Part shown: positions 1,884 through 25,647 of the stretch, one piece after another
Layout of the letters: every line of letters begins with the position of its first letter
Numbering within the stretch: the stretch's first letter is position 1
From: Pseudoalteromonas tetraodonis
Lineage (GTDB): Bacteria > Pseudomonadota > Gammaproteobacteria > Enterobacterales > Alteromonadaceae
NCBI RefSeq assembly: GCF_002310835.1
Contig: NZ_CP011041.1
Coordinates: 3,030,001-3,062,000 of the forward strand
Direction of reading: 5' to 3'
DNA: 32,000 bases
Made by a program: the position numbers and the translations under genes
The notes under the pieces: model-generated
Database searches by the model: none
The model's input: only the letters and a program-made list of their open reading frames with translations
What the model was told of the DNA's origin: nothing

Positions 1884-1960
1884 TGGTGGCCCCTCCCAGA
1901 CTCGAACTGGGGACCTAACGATTATGAGTCGTGTGCTCTAACCAACTGAGCTAAGGGGCC
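1884..1960 (-). tRNA. ileX: tRNA with anticodon CAU. The acceptor stem and body resemble tRNA-Ile2 (lysidine-modified, ileX type) more than elongator tRNA-Met.
   Basis: The reverse complement reads GGCCCCTTAGCTCAGTTGGTTAGAGCACACGACTCATAATCGTTAGGTCCCCAGTTCGAGTCTGGGAGGGGCCACCA (77 nt). It folds as a cloverleaf with a 7-bp acceptor stem, GCTC/GAGC D stem, anticodon loop CTCATAA, T arm CCCAG/CTGGG with TTCGAGT loop, and an encoded CCA. The acceptor stem GGCCCCT/AGGGGCC matches E. coli ileX as I recall it, not metT (GGCTACG). Confidence 0.93.
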
Positions 1961-5562: not shown

Positions 5563-7350
5563 TTAGCCACTTTTTTTACTATTGGATAAACGCACAACAG
5601 CGGGTGCAGGCCTTCTTCGATTACAAATAAATAAGTAGCTGTGACGATAACGTTTTGCTTCTTTTTTAGCATCTGTGGCTAATGCCGCTACTTGATGGCT
5701 ATTTTTACACTGCTGCAGATCCGGCTCAACTAAACCTATCGATAATGTAAGTAGAGGTACAAACTGCTTTTCGCCCTCTCGATTAGTTGCCCAATACCCT
5801 TTTCCAGCAATATGCTCTGGCGTAAAAAATACGCGTGACTGCAATTCAAATTGCGTGATAATGGTATTACAAACCTCCACCGCATCTTTTTTTTCAAACA
5901 CCACCATAAAGTCATCGCCACCAATATGCCCGACAAAGTTAGCGCTGTGCGCACACGCTTTTACAGTCACATCGGCCAGAAGTTTTATCACGCTGTCCCC
6001 ACTGGCATAACCATACAGATCGTTAAATTGTTTAAAATGATTTAAATCGATATAAGCTAGTGAAAATGGCTGTTTATGTTGCAGACGCTGCTCTATTACT
6101 TCACTAATTGCCACATTACCCGGTAACATGGTTAGAGGGTTAGCATGTTGGGCGTGGCGGATTTTTTCAGCGGTAATGTGCTTTAATATGTCCCTTAGCG
6201 GTGCCAAACCTAAATATTTATTATTACTTGTGATAACAATATGGCGACGAATATCAAAGTCTTGCTCTGTTATTTGCTGAGAGACAATATCAAGCATTTG
6301 ATTTTCATCAACCACCAAAGGCTGTTTATCCATTAACTCAGTGACTTCACATTTATCATAAAGTGCATGCCCGTATGGCGCGGCAAACACTTCTGTTAGC
6401 TGATCTTTGTGTAACAGCCCTATTGGCTGCTGATTGCTATTTAAAACGGGTAAGCTAATTATGCGCTTGTCTTGCTCAAAAAGCGCATGAGCCTCTTTAC
6501 AACGCGTGTGACTGCTAATGGCAGGCTGAGCAACAGCAAGCACCCCGATAGCCATTGATTGTTCAAACTTTGACCCTGCTTGAGTCGATGTAAATGCTTG
6601 TAACTGCTTACAGTTATAGTCATAGCTTGGTTGTTGGCTGGGTCTTTCTAACAAAAATCCCTGAACATGACTTATGCCTATACTTTTAACTAAATCGAGT
6701 TCTTCAGTACGCTCAATTCCCTCTGCAATCACCGCTGTATTTGTTGCCCGTGCTAACACCACAATTGATTTTAGAAATTCTTTTTTAACTTCGCTTTGAT
6801 CGCAATGATCAATAAAGTAACGATCAATTTTTACAATATCTGGGCATAACTGCGACCATTGCTTTAGACCGGAATAACCTGCACCAAGATCGTCAATAGC
6901 AATAGTAAAGCCTAGCTCTCGATAATGAGCAATGGTTTTTAACAGTAAAAAGCCATCATCTACTTTTTCTTGTTCGGTGACTTCAATCACCACACGATTA
7001 GCCGCAAGACCAAACTGTTCAATTAAATGTAAGGTTTCGCCTTTAGGGTGGCTCGGATCGAGTAGAATTTTTGGGCTGACATTTAAAAATAACTTCCCTT
7101 GTAGATTTAGTTTTACAAAGTTTTCTATGGCGCGAGAACGGCATAAAAGCTCAAGCTCTGAAATTAATTGATATTTATGAGCCGTTTCGAATAGCTTATT
7201 TGGCATCGCTAATGGGCTATTTTTAGGGCCTCGACTCAGCGCTTCATACCCAATAATAGATTGCTTAGTTATATCAAAAATAGGTTGGAACAAGGTTGTT
7301 ATTGCCCCTTGTTGTAAGATTGACTCTAAGGCTTTACGTTGCTCAGTCAC
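5563..7350 (-). CDS. c-di-GMP signalling protein with EAL, a CBS pair and GGDEF in that order. The GGDEF signature reads GGDDF.
   Basis: EAL motifs are GYEALSR, EVTE, DDLGAGYSG and EGIE. The middle region has CBS-like repeats. The C-terminal part is GGDEF-like, with HIGGDDFMVVF (complement of 5908-5922). GTG start at 7350. Confidence 0.85.
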   Translation of the reverse strand: MTEQRKALESILQQGAITTLFQPIFDITKQSIIGYEALSRGPKNSPLAMPNKLFETAHKYQLISELELLCRSRAIENFVKLNLQGKLFLNVSPKILLDPSHPKGETLHLIEQFGLAANRVVIEVTEQEKVDDGFLLLKTIAHYRELGFTIAIDDLGAGYSGLKQWSQLCPDIVKIDRYFIDHCDQSEVKKEFLKSIVVLARATNTAVIAEGIERTEELDLVKSIGISHVQGFLLERPSQQPSYDYNCKQLQAFTSTQAGSKFEQSMAIGVLAVAQPAISSHTRCKEAHALFEQDKRIISLPVLNSNQQPIGLLHKDQLTEVFAAPYGHALYDKCEVTELMDKQPLVVDENQMLDIVSQQITEQDFDIRRHIVITSNNKYLGLAPLRDILKHITAEKIRHAQHANPLTMLPGNVAISEVIEQRLQHKQPFSLAYIDLNHFKQFNDLYGYASGDSVIKLLADVTVKACAHSANFVGHIGGDDFMVVFEKKDAVEVCNTIITQFELQSRVFFTPEHIAGKGYWATNREGEKQFVPLLTLSIGLVEPDLQQCKNSHQVAALATDAKKEAKRYRHSYLFICNRRRPAPAVVRLSNSKKSG

Positions 7351-8439: not shown

Positions 8440-10299
8440 TTAAATTGAAAGTTTATCAACACGTTTACCACCAATAAATAGGTTGATCACCGCACGGGTA
8501 CCTACAATTGCTGTAAACATTGAGGTTAAAATACCAATTGCTAGGGTTACCGCAAAGCCTGCAACAGGACCGGTACCAACAGCAAACAAGATAATCGCCG
8601 CAATTAATGTGGTGATATTGGCATCAAAAATAGTACTAAAGGCGCTATCGTAACCAAAATGAACCGCTTGTTGAGGGCTGCGGCCATCAGCGAGCTCTTC
8701 ACGAATACGCTCAAATATAAGTACGTTCGCATCAACAGCCATACCAACGGTTAGTACAATACCTGCGATACCCGGCAGGGTAAGCGTTGCACCTGGAATT
8801 AACGACATTACACCAATAATAAGTACTAAGTTGGCAGCCAGTGCGATATTCGCAACAAGACCAAAACCTTTGTAGTAAATAAGCATAAAGGCCAGTACAA
8901 ACGCAAAACCTAAGGCTACAGCGGTCATACCTGCTTCAATGTTTTCTTGACCTAGGCTTGGCCCAACCGTACGTTCTTCTACTATTTGAATAGGCGCAAC
9001 CAGTGCACCCGCGCGAAGTAGTAAACTTAAGTTATGTGCTTCAGCGGGGTTATCAATACCAGTAATACGGAATGAACGGTCAAGACGCGCTTGAATGGTT
9101 GCTACGTTAATCACTTCTTCCACTTTAATCGGTGGAAGTGCTTTACCTTCGCTATCTTTTTTACCAGATGGCTTGTACTCAATAAATACGGTAGCCATAC
9201 GTTTACCAATAGCACGTTTGGTGAAGGCATTCATTTTTGCCCCACCTTTACTATCGAGTTTAATGCTTACTTGTGGACGCTGGTACTCATCTGCACCTGA
9301 CTGCGCGCCAGTAATATGGCTACCTTCAAGAATAATGCGCTTTTTTAGTACCACAGGATAACCATCACGGCTCATGATCATTTCAGTACCCGGTGGGATA
9401 CGACCTTGAGCAGCGGCGCTTATGTCAGCATTTTCGTCAACTTCACGAAACTCAAGCGTGGCCGTAGCACCTAAAATCTCTTTAGCGCGAGCGGTATCTT
9501 GAATCCCTGGTAATTGCACAATAATACGTTCAGCACCTTGGCGCTGTACGTTTGGCTCTGCAACCCCAATTTGGTTGATACGGTTACGAATAATCGTTTC
9601 GTTTTGCTTGATGGCATAGTCACGAATTTCTTTTAGCTTTAGCTCACTCATAGTGGCAAAGAATGCGTTATCGTTACTGCTATCATCAATGTAAACGTTT
9701 AATGGGTAACGGCTTTCTAAAAAGCGCTCTGCGGCTTCTTTGTCTTCTTCGTTACGCATTTCTACACGCATACGCTCTGAGCCTGCTACACGGCGCACAC
9801 TACGATAACGTAGTTTTTCTTCGCGCAGGTCGCTACGAAAATCTTGCTCCATTTGCTCAAGCTGATTATCAACCGCAGTGACCATATCGATTTCCATGGT
9901 GAAATGTACACCACCACTTAAATCTAGGCCTAACTTCATTGGGTTACCGCCAAGCGACTTTAACCAAGCCGGTTGTGCCGGTGCCATATTGATAGCTGAG
10001 ATATAATCGTCACTAAGCGAGTTACGCAATAAGTCTTGCGCTTTTAGTTGGTCTTCAACGTTTTTAAAACGAACAAGAATTTGCCCGTCTTCGAGTTTCG
10101 TCGATTTAGCGCTGACGTTATCTTTTTTGAGGATTGCGTTTACTTTGTCTACAACACTGAGGTCGACATCGGTGCCTTTAGCGCCAGAAACTTGTATGGC
10201 CGGATCGCGGCCATACAAGTTTGGTGAAGCATATAAAAGGCCAATGGCTAACACAGCTAAAACAAGTAAATACTTCCAAATTGGAAACTTGTTTAACAC
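8440..10299 (-). CDS. secD: Protein translocase subunit SecD
   Basis: 619 aa, with N-terminus [30 protein letters not shown] matching E. coli SecD. GTG start with AAGGA 8 nt upstream. Confidence 0.95.
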
Positions 10300-11946: not shown

Positions 11947-12978
11947 TTATTTCCGGGTCAAAAACATCGCATCGCCATAGCTAAAAAAGCGATACTGTTG
12001 TTCAATCGCCGTATTGTAAGCGCCCATAATGTTGTCTTGCCCTGCAAAGGCACTAACTAACATGATCAGAGTTGATTCGGGTAAATGGAAGTTAGTTACC
12101 ATGGCATCAACAACGTTAAATTGATAACCCGGAAAAATAAAGATATCGGTATCGCCAAAGTAAGTATCTAGCTTGCCACCATGTATTTTTGCTGCAGACT
12201 CAAGTGAGCGTACTGAAGTTGTACCTATAGCAATCACTCGCCCGCCTTTGGCTTTGGTGCTTGCAACCGCATCAACCACATCTTGTGGCACTTCAATATA
12301 TTCAGAGTGCATGATGTGCTCATCAACACTCTCAACTCTTACAGGCTGAAAGGTGCCAGCACCAACGTGCAAGGTTACAAACGCCATTTGCACGCCTTTA
12401 TCTTTGAGCGCAGCCATGAGTTTATCGTCAAAATGAAGACCTGCCGTAGGTGCAGCAACAGCGCCTGGCTTTTCGCCATATACCGTTTGGTAACGCTCAC
12501 GGTCGGCTTCGTTATCTGGGCGGTCAATATAAGGAGGAAGCGGCATGTGGCCCACATCATTTAAAATATCGAGCACATTTTCACTGCGGTCAAACTCAAG
12601 CTCAAATAAGGTATCATGGCGTGCCACCATAATAGCTTTTGCTTTGCCCTCTAAAATGAGTACATTACCTGGCTTTGGGGATTTACTCGCACGAATATGC
12701 GCAAGTACGCGGTGTTCGTCTAATACGCGTTCAACGAGTACCTCAACTTTACCACCAGACTCTTTTTGACCAAACATACGCGCAGGTATAACCTTGGTAT
12801 TATTAAAAACCAGTAAATCGTTTTCGTTTACAAGCTCAAGTATGTCACTAAATATTTTATGCTCAATCTCACCAGTTGGCCCGTTTAGGCTCAATAAACG
12901 GCTACTCGTTCTATCTGCTTTAGGAAAACGAGCAATTAATTCATCAGGTAAGTCAAAGCTAAAATCAGCTACGCGCAT
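11947..12978 (-). CDS. queA: S-adenosylmethionine:tRNA ribosyltransferase-isomerase
   Basis: [16 protein letters not shown]..., [28 protein letters not shown] and [18 protein letters not shown] are colinear with E. coli QueA. Confidence 0.95.
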
Positions 12979-13015
12979 TGTTAGAATTCCACATCATTTA
13001 AAATCGCGCCAAGTG

Positions 13016-13279
13016 TATACCCAAACCACCTCAAAATGCGAGTTTCAGTTGGAATTAAAAGCGATTTAGGCAAGGCATTGATTGCAAATAATAGTGGTTC
13101 TATTATTAATATCAATAACGCAGTATAAATCGCTTTTAAACCAACCCGTGGGCGTTTCACAGGGGCATACTCTCATCGTTGCTACTTCTTGAAAGGGATT
13201 ACCATTACTGCAAAGTATCGCCTTGATATTAAGCCCCTGTGAAGCGCTGAATTCTGCATTTTGAGGTGGTTTGGGTATA
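13016..13279. repeat. Copy 1 of a 264-bp element closed by perfect 24-nt terminal inverted repeats (MITE-like element or structured RNA)
   Basis: TATACCCAAACCACCTCAAAATGC (13016-13039) is the exact reverse complement of 13256-13279. Inside are a 12-bp stem AAAAGCGATTTA/TAAATCGCTTTT (13057-13068 with 13126-13137) enclosing further 6-bp and 8-bp stems, and a 15-bp stem GCGTTTCACAGGGGC/GCCCCTGTGAAGCGC (13152-13166 with 13233-13247). Confidence 0.9.
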
Positions 13280-13538
13280 TTTAAACCAACTCAAAATGCG
13301 AGTTTCAGTTGGAATTAAAAGCGATTTAGGCAAGGCATTGATTGCAAATAATAGTGGTTCTATTATTAATATCAATAACGCAGTATAAATCGCTTTTAAA
13401 CCAACCCGTGGGCGTTTCACAGGGGCATACTCTCATCGTTGCTACTTCTTGAAAGGGATTACCATTACTGCAAAGTATCGCCTTGATATTAAGCCCCTGT
13501 GAAGCGCTGAATTCTGCATTTTGAGGTGGTTTGGGTAT
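13276..13538. repeat. Copy 2 of the same element, sharing 4 nt (TATA) with copy 1
   Basis: 13290-13538 is identical to 13030-13278 (249 nt, period 260). Its left arm differs from copy 1 at 4 positions (CCC to TTT, C to A). The last base of the right arm also differs. Confidence 0.9.
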
Positions 13539-13666
13539 TTAACTATTACTAATGAAGCTCAAGATAACTCCTATATTCTCCCTAATTAGCCACCAATGAA
13601 CTACATTTAAAATAGCGGTTAAATACGCTTGTTCTTATCGCTAAATATCATTACTCTTACTGTTTT

Positions 13667-16228
13667 ATGATCTGCATCTCTCGGAGTGGTACCTACGTGG
13701 CAAAACAGCTTAAATTGCTAATATTGAATGCAAGTAATGATGAGCGCCAGACTATTCGTGCCACGTTAGAGAGGCTTAATGTGTTTGAGTTCATTGAAGC
13801 ATCAGACAGCCAAGACGCCCTAAAAATATTAAAAAATCAAAGCGTAAATATAATCATAACCGGCTTAGATGTAGGTAAAATTGATGGTTGGCGGTTTTCC
13901 CGTATGATCCGCTCTGGATTACTAAACACGCCTAAAAACACGCCTATTTTGCTAATTCCGCCCATTTATTGTGAGCGAATCGCCGAGACTACTGCACGAA
14001 GTTATGGCATAGATGCGGTACTGCCTTTTGAGCGCCAAGATATTCTGCCGCAAATACTCGCAAATGTGTTGTCGAGCCATTTAGAAAAAAGTAGTCGCTT
14101 AAACCTGTTGTTATTAGAACCCTTTGCCAGCAGGGCAAATGATATGAGTGAGCAATTAAAACTTAACTTTGCTATCACCCATGTCACAACTGAAAAAGCG
14201 GCGCTAAGTGCTTATAATCAGCAGCCTTTTGCTATCGTGCTACTGGATGCCACAGCGGCACAAGCAGAAAGCTCAAATCAATTAGTCGAAAAAATTCTGC
14301 AGCATAACCCTCAGCAAGCCATTGTTACTATTATTGATAAAAACGATGCCGATTACGCAGAGCAGTTATTACTTTCAGGCGTTACCGACTTTATTCGCGC
14401 CCCTTACGACCCCTCATTTTTAAATAAAGTCTGTGACCACGCAGCTCGTCGTGAAGACTTTATGGTCAGCTATGCTGAATTTGCCAATAAAGTGCAGCAA
14501 TTAAGTATTAGTGAAGTAAAGTATCGCGACCTGTTTTCAGCACATCAACGTATTTTATTGCACCTAAATACCGTGGTGCTTGAGCTAGACCAGCAAGGCA
14601 ATATTCGCTTTATAAACCCTGCATGGGAGTCTTTGAGTGGTTTTGGGGTTAAATCGACCTTGAAACAGCCATTAACTGCATTTTGTACCAAAGAGTATAA
14701 ACAGTCATTACAATCCACTATTGATGACATTTTACAAGGTGGCGCAAATAAACAAAAAATAGAAGTTAAACTGCAACAAAAAAATGGCAATTCGGTGTGG
14801 GTTGAATGCCGCCTCCAGCTAATAAAAAATAGCAGTAATAACGCGACCATTACCGCCACACTCGATAATATTCATGAGCGTAAGCAAGCTGAGCTTCAAT
14901 TACGCCATTTAGCATTGCATGACACGTTAACCGGCCTACATAATCGTTATTACTTCGACCAACAACTTAACTATATTTGTCAAAGCGAAAATACCTATGC
15001 AAATATTGAGCATGCGCTTATTTATATCGATCTTGATCACTTTAAAATAATCAACGGCAGTAAAGGCCACCAACAAGGCGATATTGTTTTAAAAGAAGTG
15101 GCACAACTGTTTATTGCCAATATTAGTAATGAGCACCTGATCTGCCGTGTGGGTGGCGATGAGTTTGCGGTAATCCTTAAAAACACCAATTTATTAGACG
15201 CACATTTAATTGCAGAGGGGATTTGTAGTGCCATTGAAGGCAACCAATTTAAGTCAGAAGATCAAGTGTATTCAATTAGCTGCTCTATTGGCTTAACACA
15301 AATTACCGCTGATAACTGCGACCCAAATGAATGTTTAAAGCAATCAGATATTGCGTTATATATTGCTAAAAATTTAGGCCGTAACTTAGTACATTGTTAT
15401 TCAAAACAAGATGGTGAAAACAATGCGCTGCAAACGGGCTTAGAATGGGGCCATGGCGTACGCCAAGCTCTACAACAAGACAGTATAGAACTTCATTATC
15501 AACCCATTTGGGATTTTAAAACTAATCAGGTTGCTTACTTTGAAGTACTACTGAGATTAAAGCTCGACGACGAACTTATTTACCCAAATCAGTTTATTCC
15601 CTCATTGGAAATGCTTAACGACACCTTTTTAATGGATCAATGTGTTATTCGTAACAGTATTGCGAGTGTTGCTGCGCACCCAGAGCTTCTTCAGGTTGCA
15701 ATAAATTTATCGGCACAGTCATTTTTAGATGAGCGTTTACTGCCGTTAATAGAGTCGAGCCTCGAAAAATACCAAGTGTCTCCGTCAAAAATTATTTTTG
15801 AAATAACCGAATCGGCTAGCATTAATAATTTGGCTGCCACTCGTAAAATGATTGAACGGTTAAATAATTTAGGCTGCCACTTTTCGATTGATGACTTTGG
15901 TACCGGATTTAGTACCTTTAATTATCTTAAACAATTACCAGCCCAACATGTGAAAATTGACGGCTCATTTGTCCGCGATATGCTTAACGACTCCATTGAT
16001 TTAGCGCTAGTAAAAGCTATAAACGACATCAGTCGGTCACTAGATAAGCGCTCTGTGGCTGAATATGTGGAAACCGCTGAAGTATTTTTTGCACTCAAAG
16101 AAATAGGCGTAGACTACGGGCAAGGCTATTTTATTGCTCGCCCTGTCCCTATCGACAAGGTACTGATTGAATTAGAAAAAATAAAGAACAACCCTATTTT
16201 TTATCAAGATACCCTCACATCACTATAA
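13667..16228 (+). CDS. c-di-GMP signalling protein with two receiver-like domains followed by PAS, GGDEF and EAL
   Basis: PAS region (LELDQQGNIRFINPAWESLSG). GGDEF domain with an intact RVGGDEFAVIL. EAL domain with FEVLLRL, EITE, DDFGTGFS and GQGYF. An alternative GTG start at 13697 has GGAG 10 nt upstream, while the ATG at 13667 has no visible Shine-Dalgarno. Confidence 0.88.
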   Translation: MICISRSGTYVAKQLKLLILNASNDERQTIRATLERLNVFEFIEASDSQDALKILKNQSVNIIITGLDVGKIDGWRFSRMIRSGLLNTPKNTPILLIPPIYCERIAETTARSYGIDAVLPFERQDILPQILANVLSSHLEKSSRLNLLLLEPFASRANDMSEQLKLNFAITHVTTEKAALSAYNQQPFAIVLLDATAAQAESSNQLVEKILQHNPQQAIVTIIDKNDADYAEQLLLSGVTDFIRAPYDPSFLNKVCDHAARREDFMVSYAEFANKVQQLSISEVKYRDLFSAHQRILLHLNTVVLELDQQGNIRFINPAWESLSGFGVKSTLKQPLTAFCTKEYKQSLQSTIDDILQGGANKQKIEVKLQQKNGNSVWVECRLQLIKNSSNNATITATLDNIHERKQAELQLRHLALHDTLTGLHNRYYFDQQLNYICQSENTYANIEHALIYIDLDHFKIINGSKGHQQGDIVLKEVAQLFIANISNEHLICRVGGDEFAVILKNTNLLDAHLIAEGICSAIEGNQFKSEDQVYSISCSIGLTQITADNCDPNECLKQSDIALYIAKNLGRNLVHCYSKQDGENNALQTGLEWGHGVRQALQQDSIELHYQPIWDFKTNQVAYFEVLLRLKLDDELIYPNQFIPSLEMLNDTFLMDQCVIRNSIASVAAHPELLQVAINLSAQSFLDERLLPLIESSLEKYQVSPSKIIFEITESASINNLAATRKMIERLNNLGCHFSIDDFGTGFSTFNYLKQLPAQHVKIDGSFVRDMLNDSIDLALVKAINDISRSLDKRSVAEYVETAEVFFALKEIGVDYGQGYFIARPVPIDKVLIELEKIKNNPIFYQDTLTSL

Positions 16229-25356: not shown

Positions 25357-25647
25357 TCGTAATAATTCTTTACTGGAACCACAAAATAATATTAAAGTAT
25401 TGTTTTATTAAATAATTGTATTTATTTATGTGTTATTAATAAACTAAATCAATTATTAATTGGACAAACTATTTATCCAAGACAATACTCAATGGGCATC
25501 TAATATAACAATAATAAAGTAACCTATTAAGATATAACAATCCTTTTGTGGTTAGCTTTTACATACATTAAGAATCACATACATTAGATCGCATCACTTA
25601 ATGCCTATGCATTTATTTTTTCATTTGGGCTTAAAAAGAGAACTATT

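Follow-up and report, generated by a model that had tools for sequence, protein, structure and literature searches.

The presence of two nearly identical copies of a long inverted-repeat element between queA and a gene encoding a PAS-GGDEF-EAL protein, in the 32,000-nucleotide stretch of Pseudoalteromonas tetraodonis DNA analyzed here (the window), raises the question as to what kind of element this is and how it came to be there. The initial annotation, made from the sequence alone, favoured a MITE with an IS630/mariner-type TA target and offered a large structured RNA as the alternative. The favoured reading is supported by the dispersal of the copies, by sites that are filled in some strains and empty in others, by the TA flanks, and by homology of the terminal inverted repeats (TIRs), and we conclude that the region very probably consists of two head-to-tail non-autonomous MITEs (~260 bp plus flanking TA) derived from, or mobilised by, transposases of the IS630 family (Tc1/mariner superfamily, DDE_3).

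The positions of the copies, their repeats and hairpins, and the genes on either side are listed in Table 1, and Pfam matches to both flanking genes verify the placement of the pair between queA and the GGDEF-EAL gene. The distance from the queA start codon to the left end of copy 1 is 37 nt, and that from the right end of copy 2 to the start of the PAS-GGDEF-EAL gene is 128 nt. Several features described initially are reproduced by our analysis: positions 13030-13278 and 13290-13538 are identical (249/249 nt) with a period of 260, and TRF reports a repeat at 13023-13538 (period 260 nt, 2.0 copies, 99% matches); the two copies are oriented head-to-tail and have the 4 nt TATA in common; and the perfect 24-nt inverted repeat bounding copy 1 extends further inwards at lower identity (Table 1). 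Hairpins A and B are also recovered, A with a perfect stem of 14 bp followed by stems of 6 bp and 8 bp and the loop TGGTT, and B with 24-nt arms at 83% complementarity and a core of 15-16 bp. Compared in register, the copies differ at four positions only (13020-13022 CCC>TTT and 13029 C>A), all of which sit at the left tip of copy 2, where TATATTTAAACCAAC is present in place of the copy 1 type TATACCCAAACCACC. Where the copies meet, the sequence forms a quasi-palindrome (26 nt, 81%) around an asymmetric centre of 10 nt (GGGTATATTT). Copy 1 is identical to the family consensus at 247/265 positions.

Table 1. Coordinates (window positions) of the paired elements, their internal features and the flanking genes. 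Hyphens in the end sequences separate the element from its flanking TA.
Feature	Coordinates	Strand	Description
MITE copy 1	13016..13279	+	264 nt including flanking TA on each side; intact ends TA-TACCC...GGGTA-TA
MITE copy 2	13276..13538	+	Period 260, in register with copy 1; right end intact
Copy 1 left TIR	13016..13048	+	24 nt perfect, 33 nt at 88%; homologous to IS630-family IS ends
Copy 1 right TIR	13247..13279	-	Inverted-repeat search
Copy 2 right TIR	13507..13538	-	Inverted-repeat search
Hairpin A, copy 1	13048..13144	.	Folding and alignment; internal module conserved in all subfamilies
Hairpin B, copy 1	13151..13247	.	15-16-bp core stem; contains GCCTTG
Hairpin A, copy 2	13308..13404	.	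Inverted repeat and period 260
Hairpin B, copy 2	13411..13507	.	Inverted repeat
Junction of copies	13247..13308	.	Right TIR abuts degenerate left TIR
queA (flanking gene)	11947..12978	-	PF02547
PAS-GGDEF-EAL gene (c-di-GMP turnover; flanking gene)	13667..16228	+	PF00990, PF00563

The element is a member of a dispersed family with many copies at unrelated sites, both within and between genomes. A BLAST search of PLSDB identifies full-length copies (86-92% identity) in Pseudoalteromonas chromids at unrelated sites (yegS/TonB receptor and hisS/ispG), together with one copy of 70% identity in a Photobacterium. A scan of one genome per species with the motif CAAGGCATTG-N11-TAG-N-GGTTCTA, which is invariant in seven BLAST-derived copies, identifies more than 116 stretches among the matches listed, nearly all of them in Pseudoalteromonas and the others in Photobacterium, Thalassotalea, and an unclassified 'Bacterium sp. 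HQB-39'; several genomes contain at least 5-6 copies each. A single match in Arenibacter was rejected as a family member, as it is a chance match within a coding region. At least 106 full-length copies were extracted, mostly 263-266 nt in length and from at least 75 distinct intergenic flank clusters; copies of the main subfamily are on average 93% identical in pairwise comparison. There are also longer variants of 277 and 332 nt, and forms of 145-252 nt that are truncated or have internal deletions, in keeping with the decay of transposon copies. The initial annotation had proposed a BLAST search for further copies as a check, and as these are found in Pseudoalteromonas and in other genera the MITE reading survives it. 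In the window's own lineage the queA site is the only one seen, and the copy number, at least 5-6 in the best-sampled genomes, is modest for a MITE, a point against this reading.

At 264 nt the element is within the size range of MITEs (under ~600 bp) and is non-coding; its ORFs are at most 63 aa, straddle the element borders, and match no Pfam family at E <= 0.01, the sole match at the 0.1 limit being to DUF7625 (E = 0.093, 13.2 bits vs a 27-bit cut-off). BLAST of the element against a phage collection gives no match, and we found no published description of a Pseudoalteromonas, Vibrio or Photobacterium MITE or repeat that matches it. The initial annotation had recognised neither an Rfam family nor a known repeat, in agreement with our Rfam and literature searches, and as far as the latter shows the family is previously undescribed; the kind of element is well known.

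The TIRs are conserved in the 101 copies aligned, and nearly all copies begin with TATACCC and end with GGGTATA. Reading outward from GGGTA the flanking positions are T (100%), A (89%), T (49%) and A (56%), followed by background, a pattern corresponding to a TA in TATA-like surroundings. The flanking base next to the element never varies but the outer one does, in a few copies as an inverted pair (AA...TT, CA...TG), and this unequal conservation is a poorer fit to a simple TA duplication than equal conservation would be. The locus L097 contains a right end followed by a left-end remnant (GGGTA-TA-TACCC), which is what a shared TA would give. The initial annotation called for empty sites in relatives, and these are present at three locations in related chromids: hisS/ispG (filled in L012 and L013, empty in L132 and L133), PPIase/MAPEG (filled in L028, empty in L135), and yegS/TonB (filled in L015 and L137, empty in L136). 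The empty alleles lack ~260-275 nt and have a TA at or beside the junction; the genomes compared are 84-93% identical with extra junction indels, such that an exact TA duplication is compatible with the comparisons, not demonstrated by them. The family is thus polymorphic for presence and absence at these three sites, and the queA site has one- and two-copy alleles.

The TIRs link the family to autonomous IS630-family transposons. With the first 37 consensus nucleotides as query, BLAST of plasmid sequences finds both ends of an IS, annotated as 'IS630 family transposase', on more than 150 plasmids of enterobacteria, with 27/33 identities between MITE TIR positions 1-33 and the end of the Salmonella-plasmid IS. 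In the Salmonella Infantis plasmid CP038508.1 this IS is ~1.1 kb long, encodes a 345-aa transposase with matches to DDE_3 (E = 1e-38) and HTH_33/29/23, and has the ends TA-TACCCAATAAACCTCAAGATGCAGATTTCAG...GGGTA-TA. Transposases with ~60% identity are encoded on Vibrio and Photobacterium plasmids in elements with the ends TA-TACCCGTTCAACTTGAAGATGCAGGTTTCA. Three such transposases were aligned and the alignment was used to scan metagenomes, which yielded 80 IS630-family loci whose transposase-distal ends all conform to TATACCC-N10-(C/G)AAGATGC; the best IS-end match is 30/34 to the MITE right end, so that homology to the autonomous elements ranges from 27/33 to 30/34. Both MITE ends are of the transposase-distal type only. 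The MITE and the IS elements (CP038508.1 and its Vibrio, Photobacterium and marine metagenome relatives) thus share the terminal sequence TA-TACCC-N10-(C/G)AAGATGC-NN-NTT(C/T)A and a TA flank on each side, but the IS is ~1.1 kb and coding whereas the MITE is 264 bp and non-coding, and hairpins A and B are absent from all sampled IS copies. On the basis of the distal-type ends and the TA flanks, the element can be assigned to an IS630-family clade as one of its MITEs.

An IS630-family transposase with near-identical TIRs was not found among the 80 metagenome loci; over all searches the best IS ends are 82-88% identical and derive from other genera or metagenomes. Searching ~1 Mb of Pseudoalteromonas loci, chosen around the MITEs, with IS630 transposases (tblastn) gave no match, and a search for an autonomous partner through unpaired or oddly spaced TIRs in the loci examined gave only truncated or deleted copies. 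In P. damselae KC-Na-1 a family member (identified by a TIR match only) and an IS630-family gene are present on separate plasmids (NZ_CP021154.1 and NZ_CP021153.1, respectively); the P. damselae copy for which the full 254 nt were read comes from a plasmid of a second strain, KC-Na-NB1. Judging from known IS630-family elements, a transposase acting in trans would bind the 24-33-bp TIRs, excise the element, and insert it at a TA, usually in a TATA-like context, with duplication of the TA.

RUP of S. pneumoniae and Nezha of cyanobacteria are MITEs attributed to IS630-family transposases, and by description they too are small, non-coding, intergenic and multi-copy, with a TA target and TIRs related to an IS630-family IS. 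RUP is shorter (~107 bp vs 264 bp), and the copy number is lower here; the present family also differs from both in extending across several marine gammaproteobacterial genera and in having a conserved internal hairpin module. To our knowledge there is no sequence relationship between either and the present family. Correia/NEMIS elements of Neisseria and ERIC/IRU elements of enterobacteria and vibrios are likewise described as TA-flanked, TIR-bounded intergenic repeats with long hairpins, often located beside gene starts and able to alter expression, but they have other sequences, hosts and sizes (100-155 bp). We know of no cognate transposase for these, whereas the present TIRs point to an IS630-family clade. 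RNA-level processing of Correia/NEMIS and ERIC/IRU has been demonstrated experimentally, whereas the present family is known here from sequence alone.

A further property of the family counts against the MITE reading, namely that the internal sequence and the length are unusually conserved across genera and the loops are invariant; a purely selfish model in which only the TIRs matter does not predict this. The initial annotation had commented that the elaborate structure exceeds what a simple MITE needs, and the structure is indeed real and conserved, as palindromic DNA. The minimum free energy is -114.6 kcal/mol for the plus strand (z = -10.9) and -109.6 for the minus strand (z = -11.8), and folding with DNA parameters gives -68 (z = -11.7); this equal stability on both strands and as DNA indicates that the structure is a property of the duplex palindrome rather than of one strand. 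The 101-copy alignment contains three subfamilies and 97.6% of cells are paired. Two-sided changes that keep the pairing occur in 30/58 consensus pairs, compared to 10.4 +/- 2.3 when shuffled and 10-17 with slid partners, and in helix 4 (within hairpin A) they occur in 10/11 pairs. Most of these double changes trace to only two divergent subfamilies, setting the main subfamily apart from six divergent sequences, and they therefore represent few independent events.

Could these be genes for a structured non-coding RNA, a three-way junction of ~260 nt that is in tandem here and has paralogues in the dispersed copies? In favour are the very stable fold (z about -11), the pairing kept through two-sided changes (the 30/58 pairs above, albeit from few independent events), the loop motifs, which are invariant across subfamilies only ~70% identical, and a weak orientation bias in co-directional gene contexts (21 antisense and 9 sense, p = 0.04). 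Nevertheless, we consider this very unlikely. The Rfam scan proposed initially matches no family, with nothing at the gathering score and only chance-level miRNA and snoRNA matches at E <= 10. The minus strand folds as well as the plus strand, and the consensus fold is better there (-52.7 vs -42.5). Helix mismatches, counted over the union of pairs predicted on either strand, are balanced between G·T (539) and A·C (491), with hairpin A favouring one strand and hairpin B the other, so the pairing is conserved with no strand signal. At the yegS/TonB site the element is in opposite orientations in two P. shioyasakiensis strains, and the ends of the element are transposon ends homologous to IS630-family TIRs. 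Furthermore, quasi-palindrome mutagenesis is a known process in which template switching can keep palindrome arms complementary, requiring no selection at the RNA level. The large RNA suggested initially is thus disfavoured on several counts, and the palindromy looks to be DNA-level rather than that of a strand-specific RNA gene. In the MITE, the nested internal palindromes would be maintained at the DNA level, and either selection on the element or arm-to-arm template switching could be the cause.

Nested hairpins with sequence-invariant tips and a very stable single-strand DNA fold (z = -11.7) are also reminiscent of palindromic elements moved as single-stranded DNA by an HUH/Y1 transposase (REPIN/RAYT-like, or a PATE of IS200/IS605), for which the 'TIRs' would be just the basal part of a hairpin stem. 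Elements of the IS200/IS605 type show a strong strand bias, but the orientation of the present copies relative to GC skew, a proxy for replication direction, is 36:37 (mean absolute skew 0.052), which argues against single-strand transposition of the HUH type. By inspection the ends, TATACCC, lack the GTAG/CGTC signature of REP sequences, and they match the ends of IS630-family (DDE) elements over ~30 nt. REP and REPIN sequences share with the present family that they are palindromic intergenic hairpin repeats, occurring singly or in pairs; however, REP sequences span 20-40 bp, carry a GTAG/CGTC tag and depend on a Y1 transposase (RAYT), whereas the element here has DDE-type IS630-like TIRs, TA flanks, and an orientation independent of replication. 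We therefore regard an HUH-type origin as extremely improbable.

Hairpin A merits particular attention within the IS630-type MITE. It contains motifs that are invariant in all subfamilies (CAAGGCATTG, the tip TAG-TGGTT-CTA, and ATAAC) with stems that covary, and the Pseudoalteromonas, Photobacterium, P. damselae-plasmid and HQB-39 subfamilies all have it; the 254-nt P. damselae plasmid variant retains hairpin A and has a wholly different hairpin B. Hairpin A is absent from every autonomous IS sampled. The sequence CAAGGC is located ~56-61 nt from the left end and its inverted counterpart GCCTTG ~55-60 nt from the right end, and both resemble the TIR core TCAAGATGC minus two bases; we speculate that this symmetric pair may represent inner transposase-binding sites. 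It is conceivable, although we would not favour it, that hairpin A is a functional unit riding on the transposon, either as a protein-binding hairpin that mobilisation requires or as a portable regulatory or RNA element. If it were to bind a transposase or host protein, this IR/DR-like architecture would be new for bacterial IS630 MITEs, and if it were a regulatory or RNA element it would benefit the host genes beside the insertion. Likenesses of hairpin A seen by eye to a XerCD/dif arm, an IHF site, a tRNA T-loop, and a conserved sigma-70 promoter were discarded, being either not conserved across subfamilies or at chance level.

The contexts of the copies were compared using one copy per site cluster (n = 59) and long ORFs as gene proxies, with the first ATG taken as the ORF start so that distances to genes are approximate. 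There are 21 divergent, 30 co-directional and 8 convergent contexts, and the left end faces a gene start at 42/59 sites, often 18-52 nt from the ATG. In hairpin A of copy 1 the minus strand contains a 10/12 sigma-70-like site pointing at queA (TTGATA-16-TATTAT, 13115-13088; a consensus match only), with a terminator-like stem upstream of it. A domesticated MITE serving as a regulatory cassette, with the hairpin-A side driving the gene at its left end (here queA) from a promoter that points outwards, alone or combined with an insulator, would explain why copies lie just upstream of genes. In its favour are the left ends that face gene starts, the excess of divergent over convergent contexts, and the predicted promoter directed towards queA with a terminator-like stem behind it. 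However, the -10 hexamer is good in this lineage only, the family consensus being TATTAC and the Photobacterium subfamily lacking it, and both the promoter call, as a consensus match, and the approximate gene distances weaken the case. Divergent spacers are also larger and AT-rich, and TA-targeting alone could enrich for them; such larger, TA-rich divergent spacers could explain much of the context pattern. A dedicated cassette is unlikely; a regulatory side-effect is possible.

The history of the MITE pair can be examined by comparison of the site in 10 loci from among the many public assemblies that encode exactly the same queA protein. Six of the ten carry two copies joined at TATATTT as in the window, among them a metagenome scaffold (L007) with an N-gap inside copy 1, and the other four have exactly one copy, including the complete chromosomes CP001796.1, CP152390.1 and CP162514.1. 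The single copy of these alleles has the same left end as copy 1 and is followed by the flank that lies to the right of copy 2. The pair is also present at the same site in the complete chromosome of a species representative, Pseudoalteromonas sp. RW-H-Ap-1 (L089, CP176466.1), with 96-98% identity. The initial annotation had asked whether the tandem arrangement is real, and these other assemblies (the six queA-identical loci and L089) answer that it is. The N-gap in L007 does indicate that the repeat troubles assemblers, and a collapsed or expanded repeat could in principle masquerade as a tandem arrangement, but assemblies from different projects, including the complete chromosome L089, have two copies with the same idiosyncratic junction, and the complete genomes L003, L008 and L010 carry one-copy alleles; the probability of an assembly artefact is negligible.

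The identity of the copies had been taken initially to signify a very recent duplication, and this does not hold. Within single strains copies 1 and 2 differ at 0 to 7 nt, the same junction is found in these strains and in the more distant relative L089, and both downstream flank haplotypes carry one-copy and two-copy alleles, indicating that the pair has existed long enough to become polymorphic. It arose once, and not very recently. The first insertion between queA and the GGDEF-EAL gene would have occurred in an ancestor of this Pseudoalteromonas lineage, and the second copy could have arisen by either of two routes. In the first, an insertion at the TA abutting copy 1 would have created a perfect 2 x 24-nt palindrome whose centre later eroded; a double insertion sharing a TA predicts GGGTA-TA-TACCC and a period of 262, whereas the observed junction is GGGTA-TA-TTTAAACC with a period of 260. 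The second would be a microhomology-mediated 260-bp tandem duplication, on which the comparison of the downstream flank (GGGTAT-TTAA-C) with the junction (GGGTATAT-TTAA-ACC) bears. Each route needs one additional small step, and we choose neither. For the one-copy alleles the simplest explanation is that homologous recombination between the two direct repeats later removed one copy in some strains.

This locus therefore contains a tandem, polymorphic pair of MITEs from a family that is related to IS630-family transposons and spread through marine Gammaproteobacteria. As one further family in a well-known class it leaves the general understanding of bacterial MITEs unchanged. For genome annotation it provides a name and a model for a repeat that gene callers now mis-annotate as hypothetical proteins of 59-63 aa, and that breaks or collapses assemblies in Pseudoalteromonas, Photobacterium and their relatives. 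The connection to a widespread marine clade of the IS630 family makes mobilisation of the MITEs testable, and the natural 0/1/2-copy polymorphism immediately upstream of both queA and a gene for c-di-GMP turnover could serve to study whether such insertions alter expression. The main interest of the family lies in this polymorphism and in the conserved hairpin-A module.

The MITE pair, two head-to-tail copies of the 264-nt element lying between queA and a GGDEF-EAL gene, is accompanied on both sides by a 14-nt direct repeat, CATTTAAAAT(C/A)GCG, which is located 8 nt to the left of copy 1 and 66 nt to the right of copy 2. An exact 16-nt repeat, CCACATCATTTAAAAT, is also present at window positions 12552 and 12989. 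Within this divergent promoter region the flanking 14-nt repeat could serve as a site for a regulator; alternatively, it could have arisen by chance in AT-rich DNA. The GGDEF-EAL gene itself is called at 853 aa in some assemblies versus 843 aa in others (window 13667-13696; loci L003, L005, L006 and L010), which makes it uncertain where the gene really starts and how far it lies from the MITE pair.

Several public assemblies (L001, L003-L007 and L009) annotate ORFs of 59 aa and 63 aa within the MITE copies as genes. Neither ORF matches a Pfam family above threshold, and these gene calls are almost certainly spurious. The tandem repeat also breaks short-read assembly, as seen in a metagenome scaffold (L007, about 9800-9900) with a run of N within copy 1. 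The window contains a tRNA gene and a short tandem repeat, both without relation to the MITE pair.

Coordinates of repeats, element remnants, gene calls and other features
Feature	Location	Strand	Basis
14-nt direct repeat CATTTAAAAT(C/A)GCG	window 12995-13008, 13604-13617		
14-nt direct repeat, third copy, within queA	window 12558-12571		
59-aa and 63-aa ORFs within MITE copies	window 12981-13160, 13229-13420	-	gene calls, public assemblies
Left-end remnant TATACCCAA...	L097, about 5673-5684		
Left-end remnant TATACCCAA...	L054, 4767-4780		
Left-end remnant TATACCCAA...	L104, 7966-7980		
Left-end remnant TATACCCAA...	L117, about 6590-6601		
tRNA gene	window 1887-1960	-	Rfam, 68.8 bits
Short tandem repeat, 16 nt x 2.2	window 25390-25426		

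Two P. shioyasakiensis strains carry the element at the same yegS/TonB-receptor intergenic site, with one orientation the reverse of the other (L011:1501-1765 versus L015:1501-1765; also L049 and L040), indicating either inversion in situ via the terminal inverted repeats (TIRs) or independent insertions at the same TA. At four independent sites, left-end remnants of 8-12 nt (TATACCCAA...) immediately follow intact right ends; these may be footprints of lost neighbouring copies, or may indicate that TIR-like sequence is preferred as a target. The essential housekeeping genes hisS and ispG, which border another site of the family, are carried on Pseudoalteromonas replicons of 0.68-0.9 Mb that were deposited as 'plasmids' (L012, L013 and L132-L134); presumably these are a second chromosome or chromid.

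Family members are also found on plasmids of other genera. Vibrio tritonius plasmid pMA35 has TIR matches at eight places, and a partial copy corresponding to the right half (L138:2950-3040) is located where an annotated pectate lyase CDS begins, the ATG of this CDS being within the TIR motif CAAGATGC. A Photobacterium damselae plasmid carries a 254-nt member (L140:2001-2254) in which the TIRs and the internal hairpin A, with its invariant motifs, are retained while an unrelated, nearly perfect long palindrome takes the place of hairpin B, showing that the element is modular.
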